Shown one piece after another: positions 11,602-56,474 of a stretch of DNA of 64,000 nt. The stretch is from a virus, in the IMG/VR virus record IMGVR_UViG_3300033168_000001, positions 60 through 64,059 of that record. One strand, given 5' to 3'. Within the stretch, counting starts at the first letter, position 1. Every line of letters starts with the position of its first letter. The translations under genes and the position numbers were made by a program. The notes beneath the pieces are model-generated. The model did no database searches and was not told where the DNA came from. It was given only the letters and a program-made list of their open reading frames with translations.

Positions 11602-12009
11602 CAACAACCTCCCAGGGGACCCCGCCCTTTAGGGCTGGGGAGGAATGGGATCGGCCACGCCGATGGGCCGCGATCGCGGCCCATCAGTGACCGCATCCGT
11701 GGTAAAATACAGGTGAAGTACCGCGCACTCTTAGCCTTACGGAGCCTACGGGATTCCTGGTCGGGTGGCGGGAAACATGCACAGAAGGGCATGGGATAGC
11801 GAAAGCGCCTATCTCTGGTCCACCAAGTGGGCCAAAGAATCTGTCTGAGATATCCGTTCTGTGACGCGCCAAGCTGACAGTAGCTGTTGAGCACCTGGCG
11901 CGCTGGTGTGAGTCCAGCTAGGGTTGAGTCGCAACGTACTCCTCCTGAACGTGCCGCCCAACACGCGGGGCAGGCGCAAGCCCCTGGCTTTAGCCATGGG
12001 GTCGGTGAC
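11602..12009 (+). mobile_element. Non-autonomous IS200/IS605 derivative 1 (PATE/MITE-like, no ORF)
   Basis: Target CCAT on the left; subterminal hairpins CCCCGCCC-TTTA-GGGCTGGGG and AAGCCCCTGGCTTTAGCCATGGGG; ends ..TGAC; no TSD; internal TGGTAAAAT at 11700. Confidence 0.8.
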
Positions 12010-12122
12010 TTTAGGCTACGTTGTTTAATCCCACCTACCAATTTGGTATAATAGAAGTGTACACAAAGTGCCCAAGCGGTGCGGAAACACCCTTGGGCGC
12101 GTCACACGTATCGGAGGTACGT

Positions 12123-12821
12123 ATGCCAGATCAGTCTATCATTTTTCTGACCCTTCATGGTGTTACCGTTGATCGCGCTCAACTAGAAGAAAGATTCTGG
12201 TCGGGTGTGGACATAGCCGAAGGGTGTTGGCTGTGGAAACGGTCAACGACCAAAAGCGGCTACGGCAAAATCTTTCTTGCAAAGGTCCGTACACCCAACA
12301 AGCCGTTGCGCGGTGTTTTCATCGACACACATCGCCTCTCTTACATCCTGGCCCACGGCCCAATCCCCGATGGACTCATCGTTCGCCACAAATGCAATGT
12401 TAAACGATGTGTGCGACCTGACCATTTAATTTGCGGAACGTACACTCAAAACGCGGATGATGCAGTGAGGGATGGATTGCGAAAGCCTATGCGTGGAGAA
12501 GATTCACCCCGCGCTATCTTGAATGACGTACAGGTTCTGTGGGCGCGTCAGCAAGCCCGAAGAAACGTTCCTCTTAAAGACATAGCCCAGCAACTAAGCG
12601 TTTCTAGACCTATCGTTTCGCAGATAATAAGAGGATATGCATGGGCACATCTTCCGGGCGCGATCACATCTTCTAGGAAGCATAGCCGTCGCATCCTTGA
12701 TGTGTTGCCCCACTTACGGGAGTACCTAGAGGATGGTAAGGACATTGGCGAGATAGCCGAACATTTCGGCGTTCGCCGCACGACTATTTGCCGATGGATA
12801 GTGATATCTAACGAGGTCTAG
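12123..12821 (+). CDS. HNH homing endonuclease (HNH_3-like) with C-terminal HTH repeats
   Basis: CWLW..GYG..HRLSY..HGPIPDGLIVRHKCNVKRCVRPDHL.GTYTQN; RBS GGAGG. Confidence 0.85.
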   Translation: MPDQSIIFLTLHGVTVDRAQLEERFWSGVDIAEGCWLWKRSTTKSGYGKIFLAKVRTPNKPLRGVFIDTHRLSYILAHGPIPDGLIVRHKCNVKRCVRPDHLICGTYTQNADDAVRDGLRKPMRGEDSPRAILNDVQVLWARQQARRNVPLKDIAQQLSVSRPIVSQIIRGYAWAHLPGAITSSRKHSRRILDVLPHLREYLEDGKDIGEIAEHFGVRRTTICRWIVISNEV

Positions 12822-12824
12822 CCC

Positions 12825-13634
12825 TTACGGCAACCTGGTGATATTGTCGCGTCTGTCCCAACCGCCCCATTTACCGTTAGGCAACTTGAGACTGATCCAC
12901 GGTTGAGAGTCGCCCGCCTGCGCCATCAACACATCGCCTTTCTTGATGTGCTGCGTGATCGGCGCGGCCTGGTTGGGCTTGGCGTGGAGCGCGCCGTCGA
13001 ACAGCACGCGGAAGCGCAGCGGGCCGGCTGTGGCGCCACCGGGAGCGCCTGGTGAGCCGGAGGACGCGCCGGAGGTCTGGCCAGCCAGCGGCGCGACTGT
13101 TTGGGGGTTACAATCTACTTGTAAAAACCAACCATTGTAGGCACGACGGTAGGTGTCCAGGCTCCATGTATCGAACGCATCCTCCCACGGATTCGCGCGC
13201 GCGGCTTGCCCCGCGTCGTCGTCGACCGTCACGGTGGGGCAGAAATGGCCGCCCGTCAGGTTGGCGAGGTCGGCGTAGAACAGGGTGATGTTCGGACGTC
13301 CGTGTGCCAGGTTGTCACGAAACACGTTCAGCGCGGTATCAGCGTCGACCTGCGCGTAGTGGTTAGGAATGTTGTGCGTTGCTAGATCGTGCGAGAGCTG
13401 GCTGACGTTGGTATAGCCGAGGTCGTTGGCCTCGTTCGGCTGATTGAAAATGCGGTCATTGATGGTATCAGGGCTCACCAGGACGGGGCCAGGGCCGTAC
13501 AAGTAGCGCTCAATCATGGCTTCGCACGTCGGCCCGCACAAGTTGAGTCTGTTGTACGAGGGCTGGCCGTCGTTCGTGGCTGCCCAGAGCTGCGAGATGA
13601 GCGGAAACCCGTTAGCGATAGAAACATGACCCAT
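12825..13634 (-). CDS. Endolysin candidate: C39-like papain peptidase plus SH3-like cell-wall binding domain
   Basis: Catalytic-like NLCGPTC and GGHF, ANPW; G/P/S/A linker; C-terminal HAKPNQAAPI...W...NGKWGGW; last gene of the late operon. Confidence 0.7.
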   Translation of the reverse strand: MGHVSIANGFPLISQLWAATNDGQPSYNRLNLCGPTCEAMIERYLYGPGPVLVSPDTINDRIFNQPNEANDLGYTNVSQLSHDLATHNIPNHYAQVDADTALNVFRDNLAHGRPNITLFYADLANLTGGHFCPTVTVDDDAGQAARANPWEDAFDTWSLDTYRRAYNGWFLQVDCNPQTVAPLAGQTSGASSGSPGAPGGATAGPLRFRVLFDGALHAKPNQAAPITQHIKKGDVLMAQAGDSQPWISLKLPNGKWGGWDRRDNITRLP

Positions 13635-13651
13635 AGAACACCTCCATTAAA

Positions 13652-14065
13652 CTAGTCGTGAGAGGGCAGCACGTCACCTCGTGCCGGTAGGCGGTCACTG
13701 TGCCAGGGATGCGCGGCGGCGCGGGCGGCGCGCTCCTCGGTGGTTAGGCTGGTCGCGCGGTCGCATAGGCCGCGCGTGGGGAAGGGAGTTATTGTCTCCT
13801 TGAGCGTGCGAGGTCGTTCACGCGATGGCTCAATCTCGGGCTGAGGTAGCCGCAGCAGATCACCCCCGTACCAGACGACGATCAACTCGTTGGCCGACGT
13901 GACGCCGACGCGACGCAGCAGGAAAGTGACGTAGTGCTTGAGGGTGTTTTGACTGATGTGAAGGATGCGGCACATGTCACCGTAGCTCGCTCCGTGCGCC
14001 AGCAATTCCCACACTTCGTATTCGCGCGTCGTGACCTGCGGTGACGTGGGGTATGTGGTCGCCAT
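13652..14065 (-). CDS. LuxR/GerE-type HTH protein
   Basis: TTREYEVWELLAHGASYGDMCRILHISQNTLKHYVTFLLRRVGV. Confidence 0.8.
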   Translation of the reverse strand: MATTYPTSPQVTTREYEVWELLAHGASYGDMCRILHISQNTLKHYVTFLLRRVGVTSANELIVVWYGGDLLRLPQPEIEPSRERPRTLKETITPFPTRGLCDRATSLTTEERAARAAAHPWHSDRLPARGDVLPSHD

Positions 14066-14091
14066 ATGTCTCCCCTCCATCTACCGTGGAC

Positions 14092-14664
14092 TTAGTCGGC
14101 GTGTTCCGCGCGCTCTTCGACGCGGGCCGCGCCTGGATCATAGGGCGTCCAGCCAGCCACCGCACAGGCCGCTTCGAGTGCGGCCGGAGTGGCGTTACTG
14201 GTCTTGAAGAGCGGCATCGGATCAACCTTGACCGCTCTCAAAAGAGTCAATACTAACTGACTGCAGAACACGCTGGTATGGGGCAGGCGCTCGAACACAT
14301 CGGGCAGGCCGAAGCGGAGCAGCAGATAGGTGGCCACGACGCCGAGCGCACTGTAGGGCCGGCCGTCATACGGCGCGGCCAGTCGCCAGCACAGCCATGC
14401 GCCCTCCGCGTCGGTGGGCACGACGTACTCTCTGATGACCTGCCCCGCTTTGGTGGCCGGGTCGAACACATGCACGCGCGGCGGGATCGCCTCCAGGCCC
14501 CAGGTCGGGGCATCCGGTGTGCCCGCATCAGTCGTCCACCGGAGCCAGCAATGGGATGCCAGCGGCTTGTCGATCGCCAACACGTCAGCGGGCTCATATC
14601 GTTTTTCCACCGACGCGATTAGACGATCTAGCGGCGAGGCACTATTGGCCGAAAACCCAATCAA
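14092..14664 (-). CDS. Permuted papain-like (NlpC/P60, YiiX/YebB-type) amidase
   Basis: PADVL...SHC (His first), YDGRPYS, then FCSQLV (Cys late) and TP. Confidence 0.7.
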   Translation of the reverse strand: MIGFSANSASPLDRLIASVEKRYEPADVLAIDKPLASHCWLRWTTDAGTPDAPTWGLEAIPPRVHVFDPATKAGQVIREYVVPTDAEGAWLCWRLAAPYDGRPYSALGVVATYLLLRFGLPDVFERLPHTSVFCSQLVLTLLRAVKVDPMPLFKTSNATPAALEAACAVAGWTPYDPGAARVEERAEHAD

Positions 14665-14689
14665 TAAAGCAATGACACACCTCCCATCT

Positions 14690-14913
14690 GGTTTTGGGGG
14701 TTCTGGGGGTTTTGGGATGCCACCCCTACGCCAGAAATACCTCTTAGATAGGGGGACAGCATAGTAAAGTAGTATAACTACTACTATACATATATGATAT
14801 ATCTACGGCGACTTTTCAGCATTGACATGACCTGACAGAACCGACAGAACCCCCTGACGGCGCTCTTTTAGATGCAGAGATGACCTCCCAAAACCCCCAG
14901 AACCCCCAGAACC
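14690..14913. repeat. 28-bp inverted repeat (27/28) flanking a 168-bp core with an AT-rich centre
   Basis: GGTTTTGGGGGTTCTGGGGGTTTTGGGA (14690-14717) versus TCCCAAAACCCCCAGAACCCCCAGAACC (14886-14913). Confidence 0.85.
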
Positions 14914-14919
14914 TAGCGA

Positions 14920-15531
14920 CTAGCCTTGTGTGCCGGAGGCCATCGACGCGGCTACCTGAGCCTGTGGCGCCGGGAGTACATTGACCGTGACGGGAGCCTG
15001 TGCCGGCGCTGACCGTGGGGGCGTGATCCCTAACACGGTTGTGAGCGTATCGCGCAGACCACTTTGGACCGCGCCCTGGGCGACGGTGGTGGCGAGTGCG
15101 GACATATCGGCCTTGAACGCCTCGGTATCGAACGGCGCCGCTCCGACGCCCGTGCCTTGCAGCGGCGGCAGGACCGCCGCCGCGCCGGGCGCCACGGCCA
15201 CGACGCCCGCATGGAGCGCATAGACCGCCGCCTGTATGAGGGCTTTACGCTGCGCCGGTGTGACACTCTTGGGCAGCAGCGTGGCGAGGCCGGCGTCTAC
15301 TTGGCTGAACTTGGTCGTTCCGGTTTTGCCGGTCGCGGCGGCGAAGTCCTGTTCAGCGGCGGTCACGAGCCGCAGCGCAGTGGTGGCCCATGCCTGTTGT
15401 TGAGCCGTCAGTCGTTTGCTGCTGGCAAGCGCGCGGAGTTCCCAGGCGATCACAAAGGCAATCACGGCCAGCGCGGCGTAGGCGAGCTGGACGATGACGG
15501 GGGCAAACACGGACCATTGAAAACCATTCAC
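14920..15531 (-). CDS. Holin (LL-H-like)
   Basis: One N-terminal TM segment, then LVTAAEQ...TGTTKF...LIQAAVYAL; sits upstream of the lysis genes. Confidence 0.7.
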   Translation of the reverse strand: MNGFQWSVFAPVIVQLAYAALAVIAFVIAWELRALASSKRLTAQQQAWATTALRLVTAAEQDFAAATGKTGTTKFSQVDAGLATLLPKSVTPAQRKALIQAAVYALHAGVVAVAPGAAAVLPPLQGTGVGAAPFDTEAFKADMSALATTVAQGAVQSGLRDTLTTVLGITPPRSAPAQAPVTVNVLPAPQAQVAASMASGTQG

Positions 15532-15545
15532 AGCTATCTCCTTGT

Positions 15546-18041
15546 TTATTCGTTTGTGATCTGCACGGGCAGCCTAAACACCTGCGATGAGCCGCCTGCG
15601 GGCACGCGCACGATGACGGTGTACTCCGCGCCCACGTCGCTCGGCACGGTCGCGCCGTTGCCCACGGCAAACGACAGGACAGCCGTCGTTCCGGTCTGCG
15701 TCAGCGTCAACGCGCCGGTGACAAACGCGAGCATATGGGTCGGGGAGAGCGAGGCGAGGTTTTCATTGAGCACATCGACGAGCGTGGGTTGTCCCAGCGT
15801 CACTCCGGTCGGGATATTGGTAATGGTCAGGGAGGCGACGAGGCCCTGATCGAGCGTGTCAATTGAGTTAGTGCCAACAATCGTCACAGCCATAGCGGCT
15901 CCCATCTGGTAGGTGTACTGGATGATGCGCCACGGCGCGTTGTAGGTGAGGCCGCGCCACACGACGCTATAGGCGAGGCGTGGCAGCTCCGGCGCGGTCC
16001 CCGGCCCCTGTTGATGTGTCGTCAGCGTGGCAATAGCTGTTTGTAGCCACCCCAGCGCTTTACCGATGGCGCGGCCCAGCCCTGCAACGGTGGCCTGCGT
16101 CGCGCTCAGACTTTTGCCCATGCTCCGCGTCAGCGCGGGTAGACTGGCTTGCGCGACGGTCAGGACGACGATACGGCCCCTGCCACTGGTCAGCGCCGCC
16201 AACGCGCCTTGCAGTGCCGTGAGGCTGTGTGTGACGCCCCGCGTGAGCGTCGCCGTACTCGATTGACCCAGCGCCACCACGCGTGACGTGGCGCGCGTGA
16301 GCGTTGCCAGTGAGCCTTGCGTGACGGCCAACGCGATCAGACGGCCCCGCCCCACGCCCAGCGTTGAGGCGGTCCCTTGTATCCATGCCAGCCCTTTAGC
16401 GGCAACACGATTGATCGCCGTCGCGCTCGTTTGCACGACCATCAGTGGCTTGACGATAGCGCGCGTCAGGGCCGGCGCTGATCCCTGGAGAGCGGCCAGG
16501 GCGACGATCTTACTCTTGAGCGTGGAGAGGAGCGTGTTCGTCGCCTGTGTCGCGGTCAGAGCGTGCGCGATGCCCCGCGCGACGACCAGTGTGGACGACT
16601 GTGCCGCGGCCATGCTCTTGGTAACGCCACGCCCCAACGCGGGCGCGCTCGCCTGTGTGAGCGCGAACGCTATGATTTTACTCTTGAGCGCCGCCAGTGT
16701 GGTAAGCGTCGTTTGTGTCGCCGCGACACTTTTACTGAACCCGCGCTGGAGTGTGGCCGTGCTTGCCTGCGTCGCGGTCACAACGCGACCAAAGGAGCGT
16801 GTCAGTACAGGGGTGCTTGATTGTACGGCGGTGAGCGTCAGTACCTTGCTCTTGAGAGATGAGAGGATCGTCAGTGTGGCTTGCGTCACGCTTATGGCCT
16901 TGGCGATGCCACGGGCGAGAGCTGGCGTCGTCCCTTGTGTCGCACCTACGGCTTTGGCGATGCCACGGGCGAGGCCGGCCACGGTCCCCTGTGTGGCTGT
17001 GACGATGAGTGTCTTTGCCTTGAGTGTTGAGAGGAGCGCGGACGTGGCTTGTGCGGCGCTCACACCTTTGGTGATCGCACGCGTCAGTGTCGTGAGGCCA
17101 CCTTGCGCGAGCGCCACCCCATGGGCCGTGGCGCGTTGGAGCAGCGGGACAGACGCCTGGAGCGCGGCTAGCTGCTTCGCCGTGGCGCGGCTGAGAAGGG
17201 GGGCTGTGGCTTGTGCAGCTGTCAGCGTTTGACTCTTGAGCGCACCGCCCGCGCTCGCGGGCACGATCAGGCGCGGGGCCTGGAACATGGCGTAGGGGTC
17301 GGTGTAAAGAGTGGCGACTTCGGCGGCGGACAGGGTGCGGGACCAAGCGCGCGCGACCGCCACTGATCCCGTGAGCGGTAGCGCGCCGCCCTGCGCACCA
17401 GCCCCGATAGACAGGGGCTCTGTGTTTGTCACGTTCGGGGGAGTGCCAGCGTTGTAATCGACCGTGACGGGGACCGCTACCCCATCGACGTACAGGCTGG
17501 CAGAGGCGGTGGACCCATTGTATACTCCGACAAAGTGGTGCCAATTCCCATCCGCGACTGCGGCGACGCTCTTAAAACCACGCTGGGGCGCCGTGGCTCC
17601 TCCCTGGTAGAGGAGCATACAGAAATTCGATCCCGCTGTTCCGCCCTCGGAGTTGCCGGCGATCAATAAGCTCGTCTGCGTGTAGACGCTACTATCCCGT
17701 TTGGTCAGGAGGAAACCTGTCTGTGCGGGACTAGGGTTGGCCCATACTTCGTAGGTGACATCGCCCGCGCCGGTTGCCAGCCATGGAGCGTCGGGTGTCG
17801 CGGCGTACTGTGCCCCTGTGCCCGCGAACCGTAGCGCCGCTCCTTGCGGCCCACTGATCCACGGAGGGCCGCCCGCGACAGTGGCGGGACTCCGTCCCGT
17901 CGCATCGTTGAGGGTCGTCCCCCCGCCCTCGTTGAGGTGGTAGGCGGCCATCAGACCACGCGCCAATGGATGCGTGGGATCAAGCCGCGCGCCAAGGAAC
18001 GGTTTTTGCCCCGCGTGTCGCCGTAGCAAGGTAATCGCCAT
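15546..18041 (-). CDS. LamG/concanavalin-like domain tail fibre with an 18-20 aa repeat stalk
   Basis: GLMAAYHLNEGGG, GNWHHFVGVYNG..LYVDG, WSRTLSAAEV; about 22 xxQxxxxxLxR repeats follow. Confidence 0.7.
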   Translation of the reverse strand: MAITLLRRHAGQKPFLGARLDPTHPLARGLMAAYHLNEGGGTTLNDATGRSPATVAGGPPWISGPQGAALRFAGTGAQYAATPDAPWLATGAGDVTYEVWANPSPAQTGFLLTKRDSSVYTQTSLLIAGNSEGGTAGSNFCMLLYQGGATAPQRGFKSVAAVADGNWHHFVGVYNGSTASASLYVDGVAVPVTVDYNAGTPPNVTNTEPLSIGAGAQGGALPLTGSVAVARAWSRTLSAAEVATLYTDPYAMFQAPRLIVPASAGGALKSQTLTAAQATAPLLSRATAKQLAALQASVPLLQRATAHGVALAQGGLTTLTRAITKGVSAAQATSALLSTLKAKTLIVTATQGTVAGLARGIAKAVGATQGTTPALARGIAKAISVTQATLTILSSLKSKVLTLTAVQSSTPVLTRSFGRVVTATQASTATLQRGFSKSVAATQTTLTTLAALKSKIIAFALTQASAPALGRGVTKSMAAAQSSTLVVARGIAHALTATQATNTLLSTLKSKIVALAALQGSAPALTRAIVKPLMVVQTSATAINRVAAKGLAWIQGTASTLGVGRGRLIALAVTQGSLATLTRATSRVVALGQSSTATLTRGVTHSLTALQGALAALTSGRGRIVVLTVAQASLPALTRSMGKSLSATQATVAGLGRAIGKALGWLQTAIATLTTHQQGPGTAPELPRLAYSVVWRGLTYNAPWRIIQYTYQMGAAMAVTIVGTNSIDTLDQGLVASLTITNIPTGVTLGQPTLVDVLNENLASLSPTHMLAFVTGALTLTQTGTTAVLSFAVGNGATVPSDVGAEYTVIVRVPAGGSSQVFRLPVQITNE

Positions 18042-18060
18042 GCTGCGCTACCTCGCTTGG

Positions 18061-18489
18061 CTAGGCAATTCCGCTAAAGGTATCGGCCGTGATCGTCAAG
18101 GATGCAACCGCGTTCGTGCCGTCATTATTCGTCACGCTGATTCTCCATCCCGGTGAGGTCTGCAAGAACAGCTTGCGCGCCGCTGTGCCCGACGCGGCGA
18201 TGTTCCCCGAGCTATACGACACGGATGGCACGGTCTCGAAGTCAGGTGGCGCGCCGTTGCCTGATCCGGCGTAGCAACTGACCGTAAAGCCGTTCGTGGT
18301 CGAGACCGTCGCGCCCGCCACGACCTTTATTTCGATCTGTGTCTCGTAGACCGTGCTGGTGGGAATAGCGACGTTGCCCGTGCCGGTGGCGCCAGGATAG
18401 ATGTTGTAGGTGTCGGTGCCCGCCGCCGCCAACGCCACCGCGTTGGCGACGTTGCCGAGCGCCGCTAAAGTCATCGAGGGCGCAGCCAT
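18061..18489 (-). CDS. Putative virion structural protein
   Basis: Beta-rich small protein directly upstream of the LamG fibre. Confidence 0.5.
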   Translation of the reverse strand: MAAPSMTLAALGNVANAVALAAAGTDTYNIYPGATGTGNVAIPTSTVYETQIEIKVVAGATVSTTNGFTVSCYAGSGNGAPPDFETVPSVSYSSGNIAASGTAARKLFLQTSPGWRISVTNNDGTNAVASLTITADTFSGIA

Positions 18490-18490
18490 A

Positions 18491-18808: not shown

Positions 18809-18838
18809 CGCGCGGCGCTCCTTTTTTCTCTGAGTGGC

Positions 18839-19228: not shown

Positions 19229-19234
19229 CGTGTC

Positions 19235-19438: not shown

Positions 19439-19441
19439 CGT

Positions 19442-21225: not shown

Positions 21226-21226
21226 G

Positions 21227-21652: not shown

Positions 21653-21654
21653 AA

Positions 21655-22110: not shown

Positions 22111-22116
22111 TCGGCC

Positions 22117-22584: not shown

Positions 22585-22589
22585 AGTCG

Positions 22590-44223: not shown

Positions 44224-44242
44224 TTTATGCCTCACCTCTGGC

Positions 44243-46270: not shown

Positions 46271-48189
46271 TCCCACACCCTTTTTAGCTGCTCTTCGGTC
46301 ATCTCATCACGCGCCGTCTTGAACTGTCGGAGAATCTCGGAATTGAGTGTCCCAAAGGCGACCCCCGTGTTTGACTCAAAACGACCCGTGTAGGTCGCAA
46401 TACTCTTGCGCAACAGACGCTCCCGGCGGCTTCCAGGCGTGTCGGGTAGAGGCGGCATATCGGGCGTCACAGCCTCACCGCACGCCTTGCGCATATGGAA
46501 ACTGTCCATTGTACGTTTAAGAACGATAGGGTCAAGGAGCCCTGCAAGTCCGTTCTCACTAATGCAAGAGAGGAGCAGCGCCGTTTCGCCATGGTCGATA
46601 GATTGACCCGTGGCTAAATCGAAAGCACGCTCACGAGCAACCTGGCCCGCGAGAGGAATAACGTTTCCCATCACGCGCGTTAATTCGCCATCGTCCACCC
46701 TTGCCGTATCTTGGTCGATATCCCGTTCTCGACTGTCGCGCACCACTGATTCTTGCTCTTCGCGAATTTTGTCAACGCACTCCATCAGAAGGCGATCATC
46801 GGGGCAGTAAATGCGCCCTACTTGCTCGTCATAGGAACCGCCTTCCGCATCGACGCGAACGGCCCGCGCCAGCATTTGTTCAATCCATGGTCGGCTGCGC
46901 ACATGTGTGAGACACGCCAGGTGCGTAATAGCCTCGACATCAAGTCCTTCGTAGGCCATTGCTACGGTGACGAGCACATCTAGCGCCCCTGGCTTAGAGC
47001 ACGCCCGACTAAAGCGCTCAATGGTCGCGACCGCCGCTTCGGAGTCATCACTAGCCGCGATCTCAGCATCGGTGATGCCCATTTCCTTGAGCCTTTTAAC
47101 ATACGTTTTGGCGACGTCAATGCGCGGCGCGACCACCAACAACTTTCCACTCCGTCGATGCATGCGGTATTGCTTCCAATCGCCCGCACATCGTGCAAGA
47201 AGATGGAATGCGAATTCGGTACGGAGCGCGGTATAAATGGCGTTAGGAGCTTCGTCGTCGTCAACAGACGCCAGGCCATCAACAGATTGCTCCGCACCAG
47301 CCCTATCGAGCCAACGAAGAGCGCCATCCACAACGGCAAAATGGAGGGGTTTGATAGCGCGATCTCGCAGCGCCTGAGTGCGACTATATTGAATGTACGG
47401 GGTTGTCGGCGTGGTATTTTCAAGCGATAACGCGGGCCTGTACTTTCCCTTACCAACATATTCGTAGGGCAAGTGGGCGATACGCCTGCCATCACCCCGC
47501 TCCCACGTTCCGCTCATATAGACCGTTAAGACAGCGCGCTCGATCAGAGGTCGTGTCGCGCGATCCCATTCCCCGCCTTCATCGCAGTGGTGCGGCTCAT
47601 CGAGAAAAAGGATGTATCGTTTGGTGTCAAATTCTTGCCGTTGCATCGAAGCACTGTCCGCCACAAGGGATTGGTACGTTGTGACGTATCCGCTCCTGCC
47701 GCGCGTTGGATTGTACACATTGCCAGCCACGCTGATCTCATTATGATGGCCGATCATCGCGCGATATTCAGGTTTGATGAATTGCTTTTCAGCTTGCTCA
47801 CGGAGCGCCAAACGGGGGACGACCCAGCAAATCGCATCCGCCACTTTAGGCAGCAAGCGGTGCGCTGCTATCACAGGTAAAAGACTCTTCCCGCCTCCCG
47901 GCGTGACCGCCACAAACACTTCTTTAACCGGAACGCCCGCCGCGATCTCCTTGCACATTCCATCGAATTGAGATTGAAAACTCCGCAGCATCCTAACCCC
48001 CTTCTTCCTGTTACACGAACGACATAACGCCCGCATCTCGTGCACGTTCGTTCGATGCGTGACCGACCACGGCATGATATGATCAGCCTCCCAATCGTCG
48101 CCCAGCGCGCATCCGCACGCCGGACATTGCCCTTCCGCCGCATACCACAACGCGCCGCGTAACGCCTTGGACCGTAACGTCCGTCCCAC
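46237..48189 (-). CDS. HNH nuclease-SF2 helicase fusion
   Basis: CPACG..WEADHIMPWS..ALCRSCNRKKG, then TPGGGKS, LFLDEPHH, MSGT, EGLD, QMLARAVR. Confidence 0.8.
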   Translation of the reverse strand: MGRTLRSKALRGALWYAAEGQCPACGCALGDDWEADHIMPWSVTHRTNVHEMRALCRSCNRKKGVRMLRSFQSQFDGMCKEIAAGVPVKEVFVAVTPGGGKSLLPVIAAHRLLPKVADAICWVVPRLALREQAEKQFIKPEYRAMIGHHNEISVAGNVYNPTRGRSGYVTTYQSLVADSASMQRQEFDTKRYILFLDEPHHCDEGGEWDRATRPLIERAVLTVYMSGTWERGDGRRIAHLPYEYVGKGKYRPALSLENTTPTTPYIQYSRTQALRDRAIKPLHFAVVDGALRWLDRAGAEQSVDGLASVDDDEAPNAIYTALRTEFAFHLLARCAGDWKQYRMHRRSGKLLVVAPRIDVAKTYVKRLKEMGITDAEIAASDDSEAAVATIERFSRACSKPGALDVLVTVAMAYEGLDVEAITHLACLTHVRSRPWIEQMLARAVRVDAEGGSYDEQVGRIYCPDDRLLMECVDKIREEQESVVRDSRERDIDQDTARVDDGELTRVMGNVIPLAGQVARERAFDLATGQSIDHGETALLLSCISENGLAGLLDPIVLKRTMDSFHMRKACGEAVTPDMPPLPDTPGSRRERLLRKSIATYTGRFESNTGVAFGTLNSEILRQFKTARDEMTEEQLKRVWEWLHDLYPLPR

Positions 48190-48190
48190 T

Positions 48191-48523
48191 CTATATCCCC
48201 TTGTCTTGCACGTCCTCAACCGACGTCGCCACCAGACACCGCGCCCCGTGCGCCGTCAAGCGCGCCGCCATCGCCGCCTGGATAGGCGTCGGCCGTTTGC
48301 CGGGCCGCTTCACCTCCACGAAGAGGGGTGGCTGGCCGTCCTTAATCGCCAACAGGTCCGGCGTCCCTGGCTCCCCCATCCTGACCGGACGGCCCTGCTG
48401 GTTGAGCAAGGCCCCCGCGTTTTGCCGGAGGACGTGCCAGCCCTTGAGCGTTAGATACTGGATGATGGATCGCTGTATCTCCGCTTCCGTCGCCGCCAGT
48501 TGCTGCATCGCCGCTGCTTTCAT
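48191..48523 (-). CDS. VRR-NUC domain nuclease
   Basis: TEAEIQRSI, GEPGTPDLLAI, LFVEVKRPG.RPTPIQ. Confidence 0.85.
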   Translation of the reverse strand: MKAAAMQQLAATEAEIQRSIIQYLTLKGWHVLRQNAGALLNQQGRPVRMGEPGTPDLLAIKDGQPPLFVEVKRPGKRPTPIQAAMAARLTAHGARCLVATSVEDVQDKGI

Positions 48524-48795
48524 CGCTTATACCCCACAAGCCCCGCACCGTGTTTCGCATCCTCGCAGTGAGAGGGGATTTCCGCACAATGGGGACACAA
48601 GGCCAACACATAGTCGCCTGGGCCAGCGAAATAGCGCGCCATCGTGTCCGGCCTATCCCGTTCGCAGCCAGGGCAATACCACACGCCACCGTCTATCGGC
48701 CCCGTCGCCATGCGCGTGCCGTCATGGAAAAGGGTCATCTCATGCGGCTCGACTATGAATCCGTCTGGTACTGCTTTCATGATCCCCGCCTCCAT
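48520..48795 (-). CDS. Small Zn-finger protein
   Basis: YCPGC...LCPHC. Confidence 0.45.
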   Translation of the reverse strand: MEAGIMKAVPDGFIVEPHEMTLFHDGTRMATGPIDGGVWYCPGCERDRPDTMARYFAGPGDYVLALCPHCAEIPSHCEDAKHGAGLVGYKR

Positions 48796-49212
48796 CCCCC
48801 ATCCATCACCGCATCACACAGCCACGGGATCGTATGCCGTGCCACGTTATCGTCGATCCATTTGACCCGCCTCCATCCACCCCGCTTCCATCGCCCGTAC
48901 ATGCGGGCCAGCGCACACGACCACGGAACGATGTGCCGGCCTGTGTGATCGTCCAGCCAGTTGACGCGCATCCAGAACCGCCGCCGTCGTGCAATGGCCG
49001 GCCAATGGTACCGCCGCCTGGCCCGCGTCGGGCTGTACACCCGCCGCCGCACGGTGATGCGATCTAACACGCGCTCAACCCGCTCCTGGTCGAGGCGCTG
49101 CCGCTCGGCCGCCGCCCATTCGCACTCACTCATCGCCGTGCCCTTCCGCTCCGCCAGCGGCGCACCGCGCACCACCACAACCTGCCGACCATAAACCGCA
49201 CCTTTGCGATGT

Positions 49213-49440
49213 TCATACCTGCACTCTCCACTCTTTCAATCCCGCATACCGCAGCGCTTCGGCGCGGCTCACACGCCACAAATAGTAGTGGTCGAAAGTG
49301 CCTGACCAGTGGTGTTCCGGCTTCCCTGGGAGGTGCAACCGCACGACCGTATGGCCGCGCCCATCCTCATCCAATTTGACCGCCAACACACGCGGATCAT
49401 TGTGGGTGGATGATCGCCAGTACACCCATTTACGGCTCAT
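49213..49440 (-). CDS. Small hypothetical protein whose ATG abuts element 2
   Basis: MSRKWVYW...; ATG immediately follows the element boundary at 49441. Confidence 0.6.
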   Translation of the reverse strand: MSRKWVYWRSSTHNDPRVLAVKLDEDGRGHTVVRLHLPGKPEHHWSGTFDHYYLWRVSRAEALRYAGLKEWRVQV

Positions 49441-49802
49441 ACGATGGACCTCCCAGGAAACCCACCCTCTTTAGGAGTGGGAGGAATGGGACCGGCCCCC
49501 CGCCAGTCGTGGTATAATAGAGACAGCACCACACGAAAGGCACGAACCTCCGGGGGACACAGTTTTAGCGTGTGCGGCAGCGCCAGCGGGTGACGCCGCC
49601 ATCGGCGTCGAGGCAGGAGTAAGCCGAGAGAATCGGCGGGACGGCGGCTGCATGGTCCTGACTCCTGTTGTGGTCGGTCGTACACCCTCGGGTGGCCGGA
49701 GCAGTCCGGTTGTAGTGCGGCCGGGAGGTCCGCCCCCTGTGTCGGGTATCGAAAGGGGCAGGGCTGCTGAAAGCCCACGGCTTTAGTCGTGTGGCACATT
49801 AC
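49441..49802 (+). mobile_element. Non-autonomous IS200/IS605 derivative 2
   Basis: Target TCAT; left hairpin CCCACCCT-CTTT-AGGAGTGGG; right hairpin AAGCCCACGGCTTTAGTCGTGTGGC; ends ..TTAC; TGGTATAAT at 49510. Confidence 0.85.
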
Positions 49803-50035
49803 ACCCCCTCCTCCACCAACATGGCCGGCCTGTGCCCCCACTGCCGGCAGTCCTCGCAGCGCGTCAGCACCATCAACACGCGCCCTGTTTGATCTCTGAC
49901 TGTCCAGCATTTGTCCATCAGCGCGTGGCTCGCCTCCGTCATCAGCGCGCCACAACAGCAACACTGATCTGGCCTTTCGTCGACGTCCTCTGACTGATCG
50001 ATCCATGCCTCCATGCCCTCGTGTTGTGTCGTCAT
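49799..50035 (-). CDS. Small Zn-finger protein
   Basis: CCCCG...RCEDC; its stop codon lies inside the element 2 terminus. Confidence 0.55.
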   Translation of the reverse strand: MTTQHEGMEAWIDQSEDVDERPDQCCCCGALMTEASHALMDKCWTVRDQTGRVLMVLTRCEDCRQWGHRPAMLVEEGV

Positions 50036-50595
50036 ACCGCTCCCCATCCCCTCTCCGCACATCGCGCTTGCGTGCGCCAGTACATCGCCTCCATCTCCGC
50101 CCGCCTCGATCGCTCCCTCTGCCGTCCTGAGCGCTGCTGCCTCAGCGGAGGCCGCCCCGCGTCCACACGCCACGCCGCCAGCTCCTGCCCCACCACCGCC
50201 CGACGTAGCGCCCCCAGCAGCGTGAGCGCCTCATCGTAGCCCGTCATCTCTGGCCGCTCCGGCGGCGTCCACCCACACGGCGCCAGGATGTGCCCCAGCG
50301 CATCGCCCAGCAGCGCCCGGCGTGCGTGCTCTCCGCCAGGTTGGAGCTTCCGCATCATCACCCCGACGCCGTGGATCACCGTTGTGTGGTTGCGGTGCAC
50401 CTCACGCGCCGCCTCCATCAGCGTCAACCCCGCCCAATAATAGAGCGCGGTCATCAGCGACTGCCGCGCGTCCGTGATCGCCTGGTGGCGGTCCCTCCCC
50501 GTCAGATCGTCCGGCGTGTAGCCGTAGTAGTCCTCGACCTGCTGCCACACGATGTCGGCGCGCTCCTGCTTCGTCTGTGTTAAAACGGTTGTCAT
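50032..50595 (-). CDS. DnaA domain IV-like HTH protein
   Basis: VEDYYGYTPDDLTGRDRHQAITDARQ..M...GLTL..AREVHRNHTTVIHGV, the Bac_DnaA_C signature. Confidence 0.75.
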   Translation of the reverse strand: MTTVLTQTKQERADIVWQQVEDYYGYTPDDLTGRDRHQAITDARQSLMTALYYWAGLTLMEAAREVHRNHTTVIHGVGVMMRKLQPGGEHARRALLGDALGHILAPCGWTPPERPEMTGYDEALTLLGALRRAVVGQELAAWRVDAGRPPLRQQRSGRQRERSRRAEMEAMYWRTQARCAERGWGAV

Positions 50596-51350
50596 GACAC
50601 CACTCCCTCTTTCCGCGCTTGCCCCGTCCCCGTCCCCCGCGCCCGCTGCTTCGTCCCTGGAGCGTTGACGCCGCTTGTGGCGCTGCTTATGCCGTGCTGC
50701 CTGCTCCCGTGGCTGTCTATCTCTCTGAACGCCGCTCCGTCCGTCTCAGCGCGCGTCAGGGGGTGATCGCACAGCCACGCCGCCTGATCCGCTTTGGCTT
50801 TGTCATCTAAAGCGGATCAGGCGGCGCCATAGGGCTGGCTCTGTGCGCGGCGTAGCAGGCAGATCACACACAGGCCGTCGCGCCAGGGCTCGTGATGGCG
50901 GCAGCCGCAGAGACCGGCCTTGAGCGCCGCTTGCTGGGCGCGAGTCAGCGCGAGCGGCGTGGTAATGGGTTTGATGGACGTGGTCATAGCGTTACCGCCC
51001 GCGCCGCTTCGGCGTCCAACTCCGCGATGCGCCGTCGGATGGCCCGCGCCGCCGCCTCCGCTGAGTCCAGGTCCGCCTCGTCCATGCCCGGCCGCTCTAA
51101 ACGGTTGAGCGCCGCCAGCAGCTCGCCGCGCTCCTGCTGGCGTTGACGCGCCGCCAGGGACCAGGCGCGACGTCGCGCGCGATACTCCTTGAGCCAGCCT
51201 GTCTCGCTCGCTCTCGTTGGTGTCAGTCGTGTGTGCATTGGTGGCCTCCCTCGGTCCGGTAATAGTAGCGGTAATAAATGTATGACCAGTCGAGGAGCAG
51301 GACCGCCGCGGTGAAGATCGCTATTTTGACGGCCTGTACGCACACGGTCC

Positions 51351-52490
51351 TTACGCGCTCCATGGGGCGTCCTCCTCGTCGAATAAGGCGTGCTGTGTCG
51401 CCGTCGGGGTCTCAGACAAACACGCGGGGCTGATCCAGAGGCGCTCCCGTTCGGCGTTCCCTTTGTCGTGAGACTGATAACCCGCTCGCTGTTTCCAAGC
51501 CACGACACGCCAGTCCGCAGGCGCCGTAAACTCGCCGTCGTAGCCGCACAATATGACGCGAAGGAGCGGGTTGTGCCAGTTGGTCTTACACCATTCCACG
51601 ACTGACTCAGCCACATTGCTCTTGACGCCGTACAGATCGCTCCCTGTCTCATAGGGAGGGTCGAGGAATACAGCGGTCATGCCATGCTTCTCCGTCACCG
51701 ATGGCCCCATGACGCGCGACCAATCGCCACAGACGACGCGCACCCGGCGTAGGCGTGCCGCCAATAGGTGAAAGTAGTCAACGAGGCCACCTTGGGAATG
51801 ACGGTCGCGGTGGACACCGCGACCGTCATTCCCAAGGTGGGGCAACTGATGCCGGGGCCGGTGGACACCGGCCCCGGCATCACTGAGCGCCGGAAGCTGA
51901 TGGGTGGCCGTGAGGGGACGCGGGGCGCGGTGGACACCGCGCCCCGCGTCCCCTAAATGAGGAAGCTGGATGGGGGCCGTCACGTCGCCCTGTGGGCGAT
52001 GCTGGCCGCGGTGTCCACCGCGGCCAGCATCGCCCAGGTGCGGTATCTTGACAGCGGGCTCGCCATCGACGCGCAGCGCGGCCACGTCGCACCACCCATG
52101 TCCAATCCAGGCGCATTGTCCCCACACCCACCAGCCCGCGATGTTGGCATCGTAGTACGCCGGGTCGGTCATCATGCGCTCACACCACGTCGATTGATTC
52201 AGAAGCCAACGGTGACGCGCGTGCAGGTCCGCCTCATTCACCGGCCAGTCGGTGTAATGCGCCACCGCGTCGGGATCAGCGGCCACCGCACGCCACCAAT
52301 TAGCGATGTAGGGGTTAAGCTCGTTGACGGTCTCGGTCTTGCCCTCCCACTCAGGACGCGCCAGGAGCACCGCCAGGCTTCCGGCGAAGGGCTCAACATA
52401 GTTGGTCGCGTCTCCGAAGTAGCGCCACGCTAGATCGCCCACACGGCTCTTGCCGCCGAAGTACGGGAAGGGGGACGGCATGGCTCTCAT
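51351..52490 (-). CDS. DNA adenine methyltransferase (D12/Dam-like) with an internal repeat insertion
   Basis: FPYFGGKS, YVEPFAGS, VFLDPPY. Confidence 0.88.
   Translation of the reverse strand: MRAMPSPFPYFGGKSRVGDLAWRYFGDATNYVEPFAGSLAVLLARPEWEGKTETVNELNPYIANWWRAVAADPDAVAHYTDWPVNEADLHARHRWLLNQSTWCERMMTDPAYYDANIAGWWVWGQCAWIGHGWCDVAALRVDGEPAVKIPHLGDAGRGGHRGQHRPQGDVTAPIQLPHLGDAGRGVHRAPRPLTATHQLPALSDAGAGVHRPRHQLPHLGNDGRGVHRDRHSQGGLVDYFHLLAARLRRVRVVCGDWSRVMGPSVTEKHGMTAVFLDPPYETGSDLYGVKSNVAESVVEWCKTNWHNPLLRVILCGYDGEFTAPADWRVVAWKQRAGYQSHDKGNAERERLWISPACLSETPTATQHALFDEEDAPWSA
51787..52036. repeat. Array of four perfect hairpins with conserved apex GGTG(GA/TC)CACC
   Basis: Stems of 26 bp (51787-51840), 17 bp (51847-51882), 20 bp (51913-51954) and 21 bp (51993-52036), each with a 2-nt loop. 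Confidence 0.92.
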
Positions 52491-52659
52491 GCGGCCACCG
52501 CGCCCTCTCGCCCCGAGGCCAGCGCCCGCGCCGTACCGGCAAACACCGGCCCGAACGACCGCCCCGTCGCCATGTGCCACCGCACGCGGACGCACGCCAC
52601 CAGGGCCGGGAAAAGAAGGGGGTATACGTTGCCAAGAAAAGAGGGGCCGAGTGGTATCT

Positions 52660-52835
52660 TGGACATCTTGGCAATCTTGGCAACGTATAGGTTTTTCAGG
52701 TTGCCAAGTTCCCTATAGGTTGCCAATATATATATAGGTAAATATATATAGGTTGCCAAGATGTCCAACAGGGACACCCACGGCCTGCAACTTGGCAACC
52801 TAGTCAGGCTATTTTCAGGCGCACGGCTATAGGTT
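52660..52835. repeat. Putative phage replication origin
   Basis: Several (G)GTTGCCAA/TTGGCAAC copies in both orientations around TATATATATA runs, just downstream of the helicase gene. Confidence 0.6.
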
Positions 52836-52841
52836 GCCACG

Positions 52842-54047
52842 CTAGAAGCCATGGGGTCGGTGACTATCGTCGTCATCACGGTCCTCCTTGTCCCACGGAG
52901 CGCGGCCACCGGCGGCCTGCTCAGGCGGGAGTTTCCAATACCATTTGGATTTGACGCTGCCCTTTTCGCGGTAGGACACCACGCCCAGCGCTTCCTTGGC
53001 GCGGTTCAGCGTGCGATCCGCGATGGGCACTTGACGCGACTCGGCCTTGACATCCACCGCGAGCACGGGGCCACCGGCGAGCACTTCACGCAGGAAGTCT
53101 TCGGCCTCGCGCTCCTTCTCCGGCTCAGGGCCAGGCGCGCTACTCGTGGCGCTAAACACGGTGTCAGCGGTCACGGCCACGGCGTTGGTGTCCCATATCA
53201 CCGTGCCTGGAGGCATCAACTTAAAGCCGATGCCGGGCGCCGTGGCGGCCAGGTTGCTCTTGATCTGCACGACCACGCGCCGCGCCGGATCATCGGGGTC
53301 AACGCCCATCGCCAGTGCCGATCGCGCGGCGGCGACGTAGGCCACCGAACCGATCACGCGATGGATGGCCGGCCCCTCCTTGCTTTTGTTGCTGTGCGTG
53401 ATGGCGAGCACGGCTGCGCCCGTCCGCATCGCCAGGGCGGCCAGCGGCGTCAAGACGCTGCGGAGCTTGACATCAGCGTTGCCCTCGACATCGCCCAAAT
53501 AGGCGTTGATCGGGTCAACCACGAGCAGGCGGGCGCCGTACTCATACATGACATCCTCCATCACGGATAGGTCACGGTCGAGGCGGGGCGCCCGCTCCAC
53601 TTCACGGCCGGCGACAACCTCCTGCATCCCCGTGATGCACTTGATACGGGCGCAGTCGGCGCGCAGCATCTCAAGGCGTGGTTTCATGGTCGTTTCAAGG
53701 TCGTCCTCGGCAGCCATAATGACCGTCGCGGCGAGGGGATGGCCCTGTGTGTGGCCGGGGAACGGCGTTCCGGTCGATAGGCGTGAGGCCAGGTCGAGCG
53801 TTAGAAACGATTTACCCAGGCCCGGATCACCCACCAGGAGCGTCAGCTTGCCGAACGGGATACGCCCCTCCCATAGCCAGCGCAGTGGTTGTGCGACGAC
53901 GGTCTCCATGGATACCACGATCGCCCGCGTCGTTGGCGCATCCCCGCCGGCCTTGTCGTGGCTGTTTGACGCGCCAGGAGGCGACTCAGGGGGCAGTTCC
54001 ATGCTCGCCAGGTGTTGGAGGACGTCGAGAGGCTGACGGGGCATCAC
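52842..54047 (-). CDS. AAA_25 / RepA-like replicative helicase
   Basis: LLVGDPGLGKS, AAEDD, LLVVDPINAY, VLAITHSNK, GSVAYVAAARS. Confidence 0.85.
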   Translation of the reverse strand: MMPRQPLDVLQHLASMELPPESPPGASNSHDKAGGDAPTTRAIVVSMETVVAQPLRWLWEGRIPFGKLTLLVGDPGLGKSFLTLDLASRLSTGTPFPGHTQGHPLAATVIMAAEDDLETTMKPRLEMLRADCARIKCITGMQEVVAGREVERAPRLDRDLSVMEDVMYEYGARLLVVDPINAYLGDVEGNADVKLRSVLTPLAALAMRTGAAVLAITHSNKSKEGPAIHRVIGSVAYVAAARSALAMGVDPDDPARRVVVQIKSNLAATAPGIGFKLMPPGTVIWDTNAVAVTADTVFSATSSAPGPEPEKEREAEDFLREVLAGGPVLAVDVKAESRQVPIADRTLNRAKEALGVVSYREKGSVKSKWYWKLPPEQAAGGRAPWDKEDRDDDDSHRPHGF

Positions 54048-54760
54048 GAGGCGTCCTGTCCTCTCTGCGCACCCTTCGCTAAGGCGTCAGCGGGTAGGCG
54101 ACCGATGGGCGCAAGCGCGCCCACGGTCTCAATGATGGCCGCGCCGTCATACATGGCGTGGCGGCACAGATCATCAAGCGTGGCGCCCCCCCACATCCAA
54201 AGATGCGGCGCGTCGGCCAGTCGCACGGCCCCCGCTGACAAGCCCGCGCGCCGAAGGGCATGGGCGACATGGAGCGCGCCGCCTGGCAGACCGCACGCCT
54301 CGTCGTCAATCACCACGCAGAGCGCGGGCGCCGCGTCGCACAGTTGCCGTATGGCGCGCGGGGGCACGACGGCCGATCGCCCGCACAGGAAGGCGACCAC
54401 CGCGACGCCGGCGCGGTGGAGCATCCAGACATGCGGGATGCGTGCGACCACCAGGACCGGCTCCCCCGCCACCACGCCAGCCGGGTTATACAGTTGGCGC
54501 GACGCGGCCTGACCGTCCCAGGCCGCGCCCGGCGCTTTCTCGTCCACCGCCACGAGGCGATAGCTCGTGGCGTGCCCATTGGCATCTCTGACGGGGAAAC
54601 GCCACCACAGGCGCTCCTGGCGCGTCACAAGGCGCACGTCGAACGCGCGCAGGGCCTCCGGCGTGACGCCACGATAGCCCCAGTACGTGCGGGCGGTGTC
54701 AGCCATGCGCGCGGCCAGCACGCCCTTATCCGTGGCCTGGGGGATTGATTCAGCGGTCAT
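54044..54760 (-). CDS. Toprim-like primase (possibly degenerate)
   Basis: YWGYRGVT, WRFPVRDANG...YRL, LYNP; the expected Toprim Glu is not evident. Confidence 0.6.
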   Translation of the reverse strand: MTAESIPQATDKGVLAARMADTARTYWGYRGVTPEALRAFDVRLVTRQERLWWRFPVRDANGHATSYRLVAVDEKAPGAAWDGQAASRQLYNPAGVVAGEPVLVVARIPHVWMLHRAGVAVVAFLCGRSAVVPPRAIRQLCDAAPALCVVIDDEACGLPGGALHVAHALRRAGLSAGAVRLADAPHLWMWGGATLDDLCRHAMYDGAAIIETVGALAPIGRLPADALAKGAQRGQDAS

Positions 54761-55014
54761 AAGCCGAGACCTGTTGATGTGAGGGCGGCGGCTTGCGCGT
54801 CTACCCACACCTGTCGCAGGCGCTCCACCTGCGGCGCCCTGAGCCCGCCATCGGCCAGGTAGTCGGTGATGCCCTGGAATAGGTCGGCCTGTATCTCAGC
54901 GGGTACCGTCGTGGTGGCGCACTCCCGTAGTTGCCGATCCAGGAGCGCGGCCATCTCGTCTTGCCACGCGGCGGGGCATATCCAGGCCCCGCGCTGTGTG
55001 TGTGGTGGTTGCAT
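54757..55014 (-). CDS. Small hypothetical protein
   Basis: RBS AAGGAG; ATGA overlap. Confidence 0.5.
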   Translation of the reverse strand: MQPPHTQRGAWICPAAWQDEMAALLDRQLRECATTTVPAEIQADLFQGITDYLADGGLRAPQVERLRQVWVDAQAAALTSTGLGL

Positions 55015-55029
55015 CGTGAACGCTCCTTG

Positions 55030-56064
55030 TTAGAACGGCAGGGCGACGGTGAGCCGCTCGTCGATGCGCTTATCAAGCGTGGCGTACTGCTCCGGGGTGA
55101 TTCCGCCAGCGTCCGGTCCCGCGTCGCGCGCCGTGAGCGCGTCCTGCCGGACCTCGTGCGCGCCGTCCTCATTGGAGACCAGTCCAACACGGCGCTCCAA
55201 TTCGTTGTAGGGCACGACGGGCGGGGTAGCTTGGGCCTCAATCACCTGGGGCGCGGCCAACGCGGCTTTCACCGTGTCCTTGAGCGCGGTCAGGGTCGCG
55301 GCCTCGTCTGCGGTGATCTGGCCGGCCTTGCGTGCGGCCTTGAGCGCGTTCCACGCCGCCAGTAGATCATCCTGGGTTGTGGCCGCATTGAAGTCCCGCC
55401 AGAGATGGTCGTAGACGCCGGTCATGGTGGGGTCGTCGATCACTTCGCCGGTCGCGGTGTTGATCGTGCGCCCGCTTGGCGTCACGTCTACGACGGTCGG
55501 CGTCGCGCCGTCCTGGGCCTGCATGTCCTCCATCTCCTCCTCTGAGTACATTCCTCCGATGGAGTCGGGGAAAGCCATGCGCGCCACGTTGGAGATGCAG
55601 CGGGCGCGCAGCATGTTGCCGGGGATTTTCTTCCAGTTGGGGTTTGTGGAGGGGTAGCCAGCGCGCTCGGCGTCCTTGATGCTAAAGCTGTACTCCTGGC
55701 GCTGCGTGGCCGTGCGACGCCTGTAGCTGACCGTGGCGCGTTCGTCGGTCGCCTCAAGCCATTGCAGTGAGTCGTCGCCGTGATCGCGGTAGATCAGCGC
55801 GGCCATGGTTTCAGCGGTCACAGTCGGCTTGCCTTTGATGACGTTGATCCCGTTGATCGCCGTCATGGCTGGCAATCCTAACTCCCGGCCTTTGAGCATG
55901 ATTGTCAGGATGGCGGCGCGATTGCCTTTGAGGCTATCGGGCATCAGTCCGCTGTCGGCCAGGACGGCCGACATTTGGGACATGGTCGACCACGCATCCG
56001 GCGCGGGCAGCAGTGACGTATCTGCGCGTGTCGTCGTCAGTTGCGTCGAGGTGTTTGTACTCAT
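55030..56064 (-). CDS. RecT/Bet-like single-strand annealing protein
   Basis: IMLKGRELGLPAM.AINGINVIKGKPT, WKKIPGNMLRARCIS..AR.AFPD..GGMYSEEEM. Confidence 0.85.
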   Translation of the reverse strand: MSTNTSTQLTTTRADTSLLPAPDAWSTMSQMSAVLADSGLMPDSLKGNRAAILTIMLKGRELGLPAMTAINGINVIKGKPTVTAETMAALIYRDHGDDSLQWLEATDERATVSYRRRTATQRQEYSFSIKDAERAGYPSTNPNWKKIPGNMLRARCISNVARMAFPDSIGGMYSEEEMEDMQAQDGATPTVVDVTPSGRTINTATGEVIDDPTMTGVYDHLWRDFNAATTQDDLLAAWNALKAARKAGQITADEAATLTALKDTVKAALAAPQVIEAQATPPVVPYNELERRVGLVSNEDGAHEVRQDALTARDAGPDAGGITPEQYATLDKRIDERLTVALPF

Positions 56065-56474
56065 CTAGAACCTCCCAGGATACCCCCGCCCTTTAGGGCT
56101 GGGGAGGAATGGGATCGGCCCCTGGGCGATGGGCTGCGTGAGCAGCACAGAGCCCCCATCCATCGGGCGATCCGTGGTAAAATAAGGGTAACGTTCCGCA
56201 AAGGCACAAGCCGTTGACCAACGGCGGGAACACGGTTTCGTGTGGACGTGCGTGGTACCGGATAGCAATGGGCTATCCGATGAGGCAGGGGTAAGTCGAG
56301 AGAATCGACGGGACGGCGGCTGCATGGTCCTGACTCCTGTTGTGGTCGGTCGTACACCCTCGGGTGGCCGGAGCAGTCCGGTTGTAGTGCGGCCGGGAGG
56401 TCCGCCCCCTGTGTCGGGTATCGAAAGGGGCAGGGCTGCTGAAAGCCCACGGCTTTAGTCGTGTGGCACATTAC
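56065..56474 (+). mobile_element. Non-autonomous IS200/IS605 derivative 3
   Basis: Target TCAT; left end like element 1; right 193 bp near-identical to element 2; TGGTAAAAT at 56175; ends ..TTAC. Confidence 0.85.

Follow-up and report, generated by a model that had tools for sequence, protein, structure and literature searches.

Gene-less mini elements of the ISC/IsrB transposon lineage in a phage from a rock metagenome: a structure-conserved interior, a promoter-like box and a possible guide-RNA layout

Three short elements without genes are located in a stretch of 64,000 nucleotides (hereafter referred to as the window) of the IMG/VR virus record IMGVR_UViG_3300033168_000001, and they raise the question of whether a phage can carry stand-alone guide-RNA genes of transposon origin. 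The window represents most of a 66-kb phage record of rock metagenome origin and encodes a terminase and other phage genes. In an earlier note, made from the letters alone, the elements had been interpreted as IS200/IS605 cassettes expressing guides for a TnpB or IscB nuclease of the host. The present analysis confirmed that they are gene-less members of the IS200/IS605 superfamily, of the type known as palindrome-associated transposable elements (PATEs), and assigned them to the ISC/IsrB lineage. They are recently mobile, and the stretch between a promoter-like box and their right end has a selected structure. For the production of a top-strand RNA with the layout of a guide RNA the chances are regarded as even.

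The elements (362–410 bp; Table 1) are preceded by the tetranucleotides CCAT, TCAT and TCAT, respectively, and possess similar, imperfect subterminal hairpins near both ends and on the same strand; terminal inverted repeats are absent. Coordinates, (T/C)CAT targets and both hairpins were found as described in the earlier note. Repeat finding revealed a 50-nt left end common to all three elements (family D4) and a 194-nt right part with 98% identity between elements 2 and 3 (family D2), in agreement with the near-identity of 49610–49802 and 56282–56474 observed before. Together with two further copies (el4 and el5, see below), elements 1 to 3 (el1 to el3) are homologous throughout; el3 matched el1 over the full length of element 1 (nhmmer E 9.8e-15). 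Their build is mosaic, element 3 being composed of a type 1 left part and a type 2 right part. Neither Y1 transposase (Y1_Tnp) nor TnpB/OrfB nor IsrB/IscB (RRXRR) domains were detected in the whole 66-kb phage record, and the open reading frames (ORFs) within the elements showed no protein relatives except translations of the same DNA, which agrees with the claimed lack of a transposase or nuclease gene. A coding role of these internal ORFs was ruled out, because relatives are absent and the substitutions in stems are compensatory.

Contigs from four other rock runs were compared with window positions 48000–58000. On a contig of a sibling phage from run X7, position 56064 is joined directly to position 56475, so that the 410 nt of element 3 are skipped with 0 shared letters. 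Therefore, no target-site duplication is present, as had been claimed, and the postulated element-free allele does occur in a sibling phage from this habitat. At the site of element 2, the sequence from run X7 becomes similar to the window precisely from 49803 onwards, following ...TTCAT, and the neighbouring gene is different; this site is therefore also a mosaic phage junction. The loose end of the different gene found in the sibling to the left of this site reads ...GTTGTGTTCAT. On a 93%-identical phage contig (L025), element 3 is present unchanged, and a TCAT which is empty in the window (8139–8142) is occupied by a fourth element, el4, with 76% identity to element 2. El4 is located at L025:1145–1565, and this TCAT is the start of the gene ending near 8142. 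The 750 nt to the right of 8142, comprising two small minus-strand ORFs (8143–8892), are absent from L025, and el4 therefore either marks a module boundary or adjoins a deletion.

The fifth copy (el5; P0122; L050:5014–5423) was found by pseudo-ORF search on an unrelated contig bearing ParB and TraG. Both of its end hairpins are altered together to one identical new sequence, as if conversion, or selection for a single transposase, kept the two ends alike. Its interior is almost identical to that of element 3. Furthermore, pieces of the elements occur in runs X4 and X5 at a depth of 34–54, with the phage itself being almost absent, and the family therefore also resides in other genomes. Contigs with identical flanking genes break inside the repeats and yielded no empty site, and a protein-based search for sibling phages in IMG/VR revealed none. 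The elements are real and recently mobile. A role as native 5' leaders of minus-strand genes is ruled out by the exact presence/absence alleles.

The origin of the family became evident from a metagenome scan with the left-end motif, which yielded 20 loci; related elements were present at two of them only, L025 and L034, and the weak nhmmer matches in L024 and L032 lie inside coding sequence and are due to chance. L034 is a bacterial contig on which an element of 1.3 kb has the same left end as the mini elements and a right end similar to that of element 1; its one gene is encoded on the opposite strand. The gene product contains an RRXRR domain (Pfam E 2e-34) and a PLMP motif, and its best match in the PDB is the RNA-guided nickase IsrB (8DMB, E 5e-34). 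Six further full-length elements from the same sample series (L041–L049) align across the whole 1.3 kb. Full-length IsrB elements of this clade start with GTCAC... and end with ...CCTGGGAGG N5-9 (GGGAGG N5-9) at an ATG(A/G) junction, and IsrB is encoded on the strand opposite to the top strand of the mini elements. The left end of the mini elements (about 80 nt) is homologous to that of the IsrB elements L034 and L041–L049 (nhmmer E down to 5e-8), and the conserved GGAGGAATGGGATCGGCC motif next to the left hairpin was also found in L034 and L041. In addition, the right-end hairpin is common to both groups, the right end of element 1 resembling those of L034 and L049, and mini elements and IsrB transposons of the same metagenomes have the 5'-GT terminus and insertion between N and ATGA (that is, directly after TCAT) in common. 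ISC elements insert between N and ATGA and possess 5'-GT termini (Kapitonov et al. 2016, PMC4810608), and the target-adjacent motif (TAM) of IsrB is NTGA/NTGG (Hirano et al. 2022, DtIsrB, PMC9581776). Ends, terminus and target therefore place the three elements in the ISC/IsrB lineage as PATE-type derivatives, by which the non-autonomous IS200/IS605 class assigned before is confirmed and sharpened.

Of the autonomous elements with the same ends for which the earlier note had called, none was recovered; the protein-coding family members with these ends are the full-length IsrB elements from the same rock metagenomes. BLAST of the elements against GenBank phages gave nothing, and scans of IMG/VR with left-end, interior and composite patterns gave nothing beyond the present record. 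The left-end pattern had 10 matches in all GTDB genomes, all of them by chance and restricted to the pattern itself, and pseudo-ORF searches revealed no further copy for element 1 or for the top-strand frame. Among 401 alphaproteobacterial genomes sampled, none contained IsrB. IsrB elements are frequent in viral contigs (65 IMG/VR loci, L051–L115), and most of these loci terminate in a hairpin, followed by about 20 nt and then ATGA/ATGG. A Shine-Dalgarno sequence is present in the tail at some of the viral loci only, in contrast to every examined member of the rock clade.

The interior of the mini elements was compared with the omega RNA of IsrB. In five full-length IsrB elements, the region upstream of IsrB shows a conserved fold, with double changes in 19 of 64 pairs, and a covariance model (R1) was built from these upstream regions. 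At 57 of the 65 viral IsrB loci, whose proteins are only 46–59% identical to the query, R1 detected a complete omega RNA immediately before the ORF (29–131 bits). In the window, R1 matched only the first 96 nt on the minus strand of element 1 (26.6 bits, E 1.2e-4); the model positions of the second domain are deleted in this match, and elements 2 and 3 as well as el4 reached about 5.6–6 bits. The invariant motifs of the second domain were not found in any of the three elements, even at two mismatches; the nexus and adaptor pseudoknots of this domain are essential for IsrB activity (PMC9581776). HEARO gave no match in the elements at E<=10, and the own RNA of L049 matched HEARO at E 0.008. Judged by these model comparisons, the interior of the mini elements is not an IsrB omega RNA. 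One further weak R1 match (window 161–309, plus strand; 18.4 bits, E 0.0095) lies inside overlapping ORFs at the window start and is probably due to chance.

Each interior also contains the promoter-like box. TGGTAWAAT was found four times in the window (0.15 expected), and three of these boxes are those which the earlier note had placed at 11700, 49510 and 56175 on the plus strand. The box is kept in five of five copies amid diverged surroundings, and its distance to the right end is fixed within 293–310 nt, whereas that to the left end ranges between 61 and 104 nt. For TGNTAWAAT, the window showed a 9-fold enrichment. The consensus fold of the stretch from the box to the right end comprises 86 pairs, of which 34 are changed on both sides (14.5 expected), and the proportion of paired cells amounts to 88%, compared with 77% in shuffles (0/500 reach the observed value) and about 40% with the partners slid. 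The structure of this stretch is a selected one, as the claim of a structured right end would have it. For the top strand, the consensus fold has −66.9 kcal/mol and 86 pairs, compared with −38.4 kcal/mol and 60 pairs for the bottom strand, and element 1 is compatible with the top-strand helices. According to these folding models, the evidence leans softly towards the top strand, without being decisive.

Since ends and target are those of IsrB-carrying ISC transposons, mobilisation by a Y1 TnpA in trans is expected. Such a transposase would move the elements as single strands. The elements land exactly before start codons and bring along a GGGAGG ribosome-binding site. The box would fire a top-strand RNA of about 290 nt, which would terminate in the right-end hairpin and extend into the flank. 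The element would then represent a stand-alone omega-RNA gene in the style of TnpB (3' guide), and the nuclease would come from elsewhere. Because of the conserved interior structure, the better top-strand fold and the placement of the box, the layout proposed in the earlier note (own promoter, RNA through the right end into the flank) is plausible, and the production of a top-strand RNA with such a guide-RNA layout from the elements is about as probable as its opposite. By analogy, a promoter after the left end and an RNA ending at the right end would be expected of a deletion derivative of a TnpB-only counterpart. A further step would be to regard the elements as promoter-equipped, nuclease-less guide-RNA genes of an undescribed scaffold class, which borrow an RNA-guided nuclease (TnpB-like or other) from the host or a co-resident element and cut the element-free TCAT-plus-flank alleles of siblings, resulting in homing or exclusion. 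This complete version, which would correspond to the RNA-only homing or exclusion device inferred before, is considered rather unlikely.

Several results weigh against a guide function. The lean towards the top strand is soft: this strand is G-rich (36% G, 27% C), helices are predicted on both strands without G-U/A-C asymmetry, single-sequence z-scores are modest (−1.9 to −2.1 vs −1.2 to −1.9), and on the other strand the box, in reverse complement, comes after a small hairpin, so that a weak terminator could be read there. Rfam gave no meaningful match in the elements, neither at the gathering threshold nor at E<=10. Of the guide-RNA model comparisons, only that with R1 was positive, for the first domain in element 1. 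No tnpB or tnpB remnant (OrfB_IS605, TNB domain) is present in the phage record and the elements, the top-strand frame had no match among 1.8 billion representative proteins, and searches of viral contigs revealed no homologue of the module, whether linked to tnpB or not. A tnpB-carrying counterpart of the mini elements was found in none of the collections searched; the TnpB genes of L034, one complete and one partial (1481–2734 and 3513–4442), have ends unrelated to those of the mini elements. The only coding relatives found have their guide RNA on the bottom strand, and no RNA run with the sequence was listed. TnpB, favoured as partner in the earlier note, is thus indicated by the layout only.

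The elements might instead be plain selfish PATEs without guide function, with an interior kept for transposition as single-stranded DNA or for harmless insertion (ribosome-binding site, stop codon and perhaps a leaky terminator), and the box might act outwards as a promoter by chance or represent a terminator T-tract. This would be in accordance with the failure to find a nuclease partner in the phage record, with the lack of a guide-RNA model match beyond the right end, with the precise preservation of both neighbouring genes and with a terminator-like hairpin plus T-tract on the minus strand (Table 1). The shared helices without strand asymmetry would also be expected if DNA or either strand matters. 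TnpA requires only the subterminal hairpins and a short adjoining sequence, as in IS608 and ISDra2, yet about 200 nt of interior with 34 double-change pairs are maintained, the box is fixed in its distance to the right end and not to the left one, and TGNTAWAAT is enriched. Plain PATEs are viewed as a possible but somewhat doubtful explanation.

A second alternative concerns the minus strand. IscB-type omega RNAs are located at the right end, take a 5' guide from the flank and require read-through transcription (bioRxiv 10.1101/2023.03.14.532601). Accordingly, stand-alone omega RNAs of the IsrB type might be made by phage read-through from the right flank, with the guide first and the scaffold thereafter, and an IsrB of the host or of another element might nick empty sites next to ATGA. 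The ends, the 5'-GT terminus and an ATGA/ATGG junction equal to the IsrB TAM (PMC9581776) agree with this, as does the position of elements 2 and 3 in minus-strand operons, which provides the sense orientation needed for biogenesis (bioRxiv 10.1101/2023.03.14.532601). Moreover, about 290 nt fits the size of an IsrB omega RNA, the model's first domain is matched in element 1, and same-ended IsrB elements occur in the sample of el5. However, R1 finds complete omega RNAs at most of the distant IsrB genes but gives 5.6 bits for elements 2 and 3, element 1 lacks the entire second (nexus) domain, and the invariant motifs of this essential domain are absent. In addition, the bottom strand folds much worse, and element 1 lies between plus-strand genes, where minus-strand transcription is not evident. 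The only coding relatives carry IsrB on the other strand, the interior fails at the IsrB omega-RNA model, and this alternative is judged to be distinctly unlikely. Finally, the top strand might give rise to a regulatory or antisense RNA which would be complementary both to the right-end part of an IsrB omega RNA and to phage operon mRNA and would act as an anti-guide or local regulator and not as a guide. Conserved box and structure on the top strand speak for it, as do the right-end 35–96 nt, whose sequence is reverse-complementary to the 5' stem region in IsrB omega RNAs of the same family. The complementarity is short and imperfect, however, and no precedent was found in the literature searched; this reading is regarded as very improbable.

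On the minus strand of every copy, CCTGGGAGG is followed by 5–9 nt and then by the ATG of the abutting gene. This tail sets a ribosome-binding site before that gene, which in the case of element 3 encodes RecT and in that of element 2 comprises 75 codons. When element 2 was removed in silico, a native site with an ATGA stop/start overlap was restored, and the first bases of element 2 supply the upstream gene with the same last residue and a TAA stop. By the GGGAGG site and, in element 2, the stop codon, the flanking phage genes thus stay intact, and insertion into the phage operons is nearly free of cost. Elements 2 and 3 are located within minus-strand operons and element 1 between two plus-strand genes. 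Since the plus-strand gene 12124–12821 lies next to element 1, a top-strand transcript from this element would enter it. A native TTTGGTATAAT box of the same form as the element-internal box is located before this gene at window positions 12044–12052, 35 nt to the right of element 1.

Table 1. Coordinates of the mini elements, their parts and related sites in the window.
Feature	Position	Strand	Remark
Element 1, PATE-type mini element	11602..12009	+ (top strand)	408 nt; CCAT target 11598-11601
Element 1, left-end subterminal hairpin, then conserved GGAGGAATGGGATCGGCC	11620..11640	+	family D4
Element 1, extended -10 promoter-like box TGGTAAAAT, aimed at right end	11700..11708	+	310 nt to right end
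Element 1, right-end 96 nt matching the first domain (S1, SL1, SL2) of the IsrB omega-RNA model	11914..12009	-	cmsearch
Element 1, right flank, guide position under either nuclease reading	12010..12029	+	position only
Element 2	49441..49802	+	362 nt; TCAT target 49437-49440 = ATG of 75-codon minus-strand gene
Element 2, left-end hairpin	49461..49481	+	sequence, family D4
Element 2, box TGGTATAAT	49510..49518	+	293 nt to right end
Terminator-like hairpin and T-tract	49526..49543	-	
Element 2, right module, common to element 3	49610..49802	+	family D2; compensatory changes vs el4 and el1
Element 2, right-end hairpin	49774..49794	+	inside right module
Element 2, right flank	49803..49822	+	without the element, minus strand reads GGAGGAGGGGGTATGA, with native ribosome-binding site and stop/start overlap
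Element 3	56065..56474	+	410 nt; TCAT target 56061-56064 = ATG of RecT gene (55030-56064, minus strand)
Element 3, left-end hairpin	56083..56104	+	
Element 3, box TGGTAAAAT	56175..56183	+	300 nt to right end
Element 3, right module, common to element 2	56282..56474	+	family D2; right-end hairpin 56446-56466
Element 3, right flank	56475..56494	+	corresponding element-free allele present in sibling phage
Element-borne GGGAGG Shine-Dalgarno sequence	56071..56076	-	6-10 nt before abutting ATG; equivalents 11608-11613, 49449-49454
Empty ATGA (TCAT) target at stop/start overlap	8139..8142	-	occupied by el4 in contig L025

PATEs and stand-alone omega RNAs are already known, and the element type itself is not new. 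What is added here is a mini element of the ISC/IsrB lineage with a structure-conserved interior that differs from the guide RNA of its own lineage and with a promoter-like box located on the opposite strand. Sibling phages of one habitat differ in whether they carry a given copy, which means that the empty allele needed as target of a guide does exist, and since this clade inserts exactly at start codons and brings a ribosome-binding site, entry into phage operons costs next to nothing. If the RNA indeed guided a nuclease in trans, phages would have gained weapons or homing devices from transposon guide RNAs without encoding the enzyme, and homing into competitors, or their exclusion, would be available for a few hundred bases with the phage genes undisrupted.

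In comparison with ISC/IsrB transposons (PMC4810608, PMC9581776), the mini elements are alike in the 5'-GT terminus on the IsrB-sense strand, in the subterminal hairpins at both ends and in the insertion just upstream of ATGA/ATGG without duplication, and homology with full-length IsrB elements of the same metagenomes was found for the left end (about 80 nt) and the right-end hairpin. They differ by the lack of the IsrB gene and of the nexus domain and by the promoter-like box on the opposite strand. ISC termini also occur on TnpB-only elements (IS605B), whose tnpB lies on the opposite strand (PMC4810608); these counterparts agree with the mini elements in the target and in the strand and layout that are predicted for the interior, and a tnpB-carrying version of the mini elements was not found in the collections searched. 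As cited in PMC9581776, stand-alone omega RNAs work with IscB in trans (Altae-Tran et al. 2021). The candidate guide-RNA gene would resemble these in being apart from its nuclease; they are recognisably of the IscB type, whereas class and function are only putative here. PATEs often encode omega RNAs acting in trans (Meers et al., bioRxiv 10.1101/2023.03.14.532601), and those of Geobacillus stearothermophilus described there are, like the mini elements, gene-less IS200/IS605 derivatives with both ends, presumably mobilised in trans, and with a structured RNA, predicted in the present case, kept beside the right end. In contrast to these PATEs, the RNA predicted here matches no known omega-RNA model and has no nuclease-linked copy, and the mini elements are borne by a phage, are inserted at start codons and supply the ribosome-binding site themselves.

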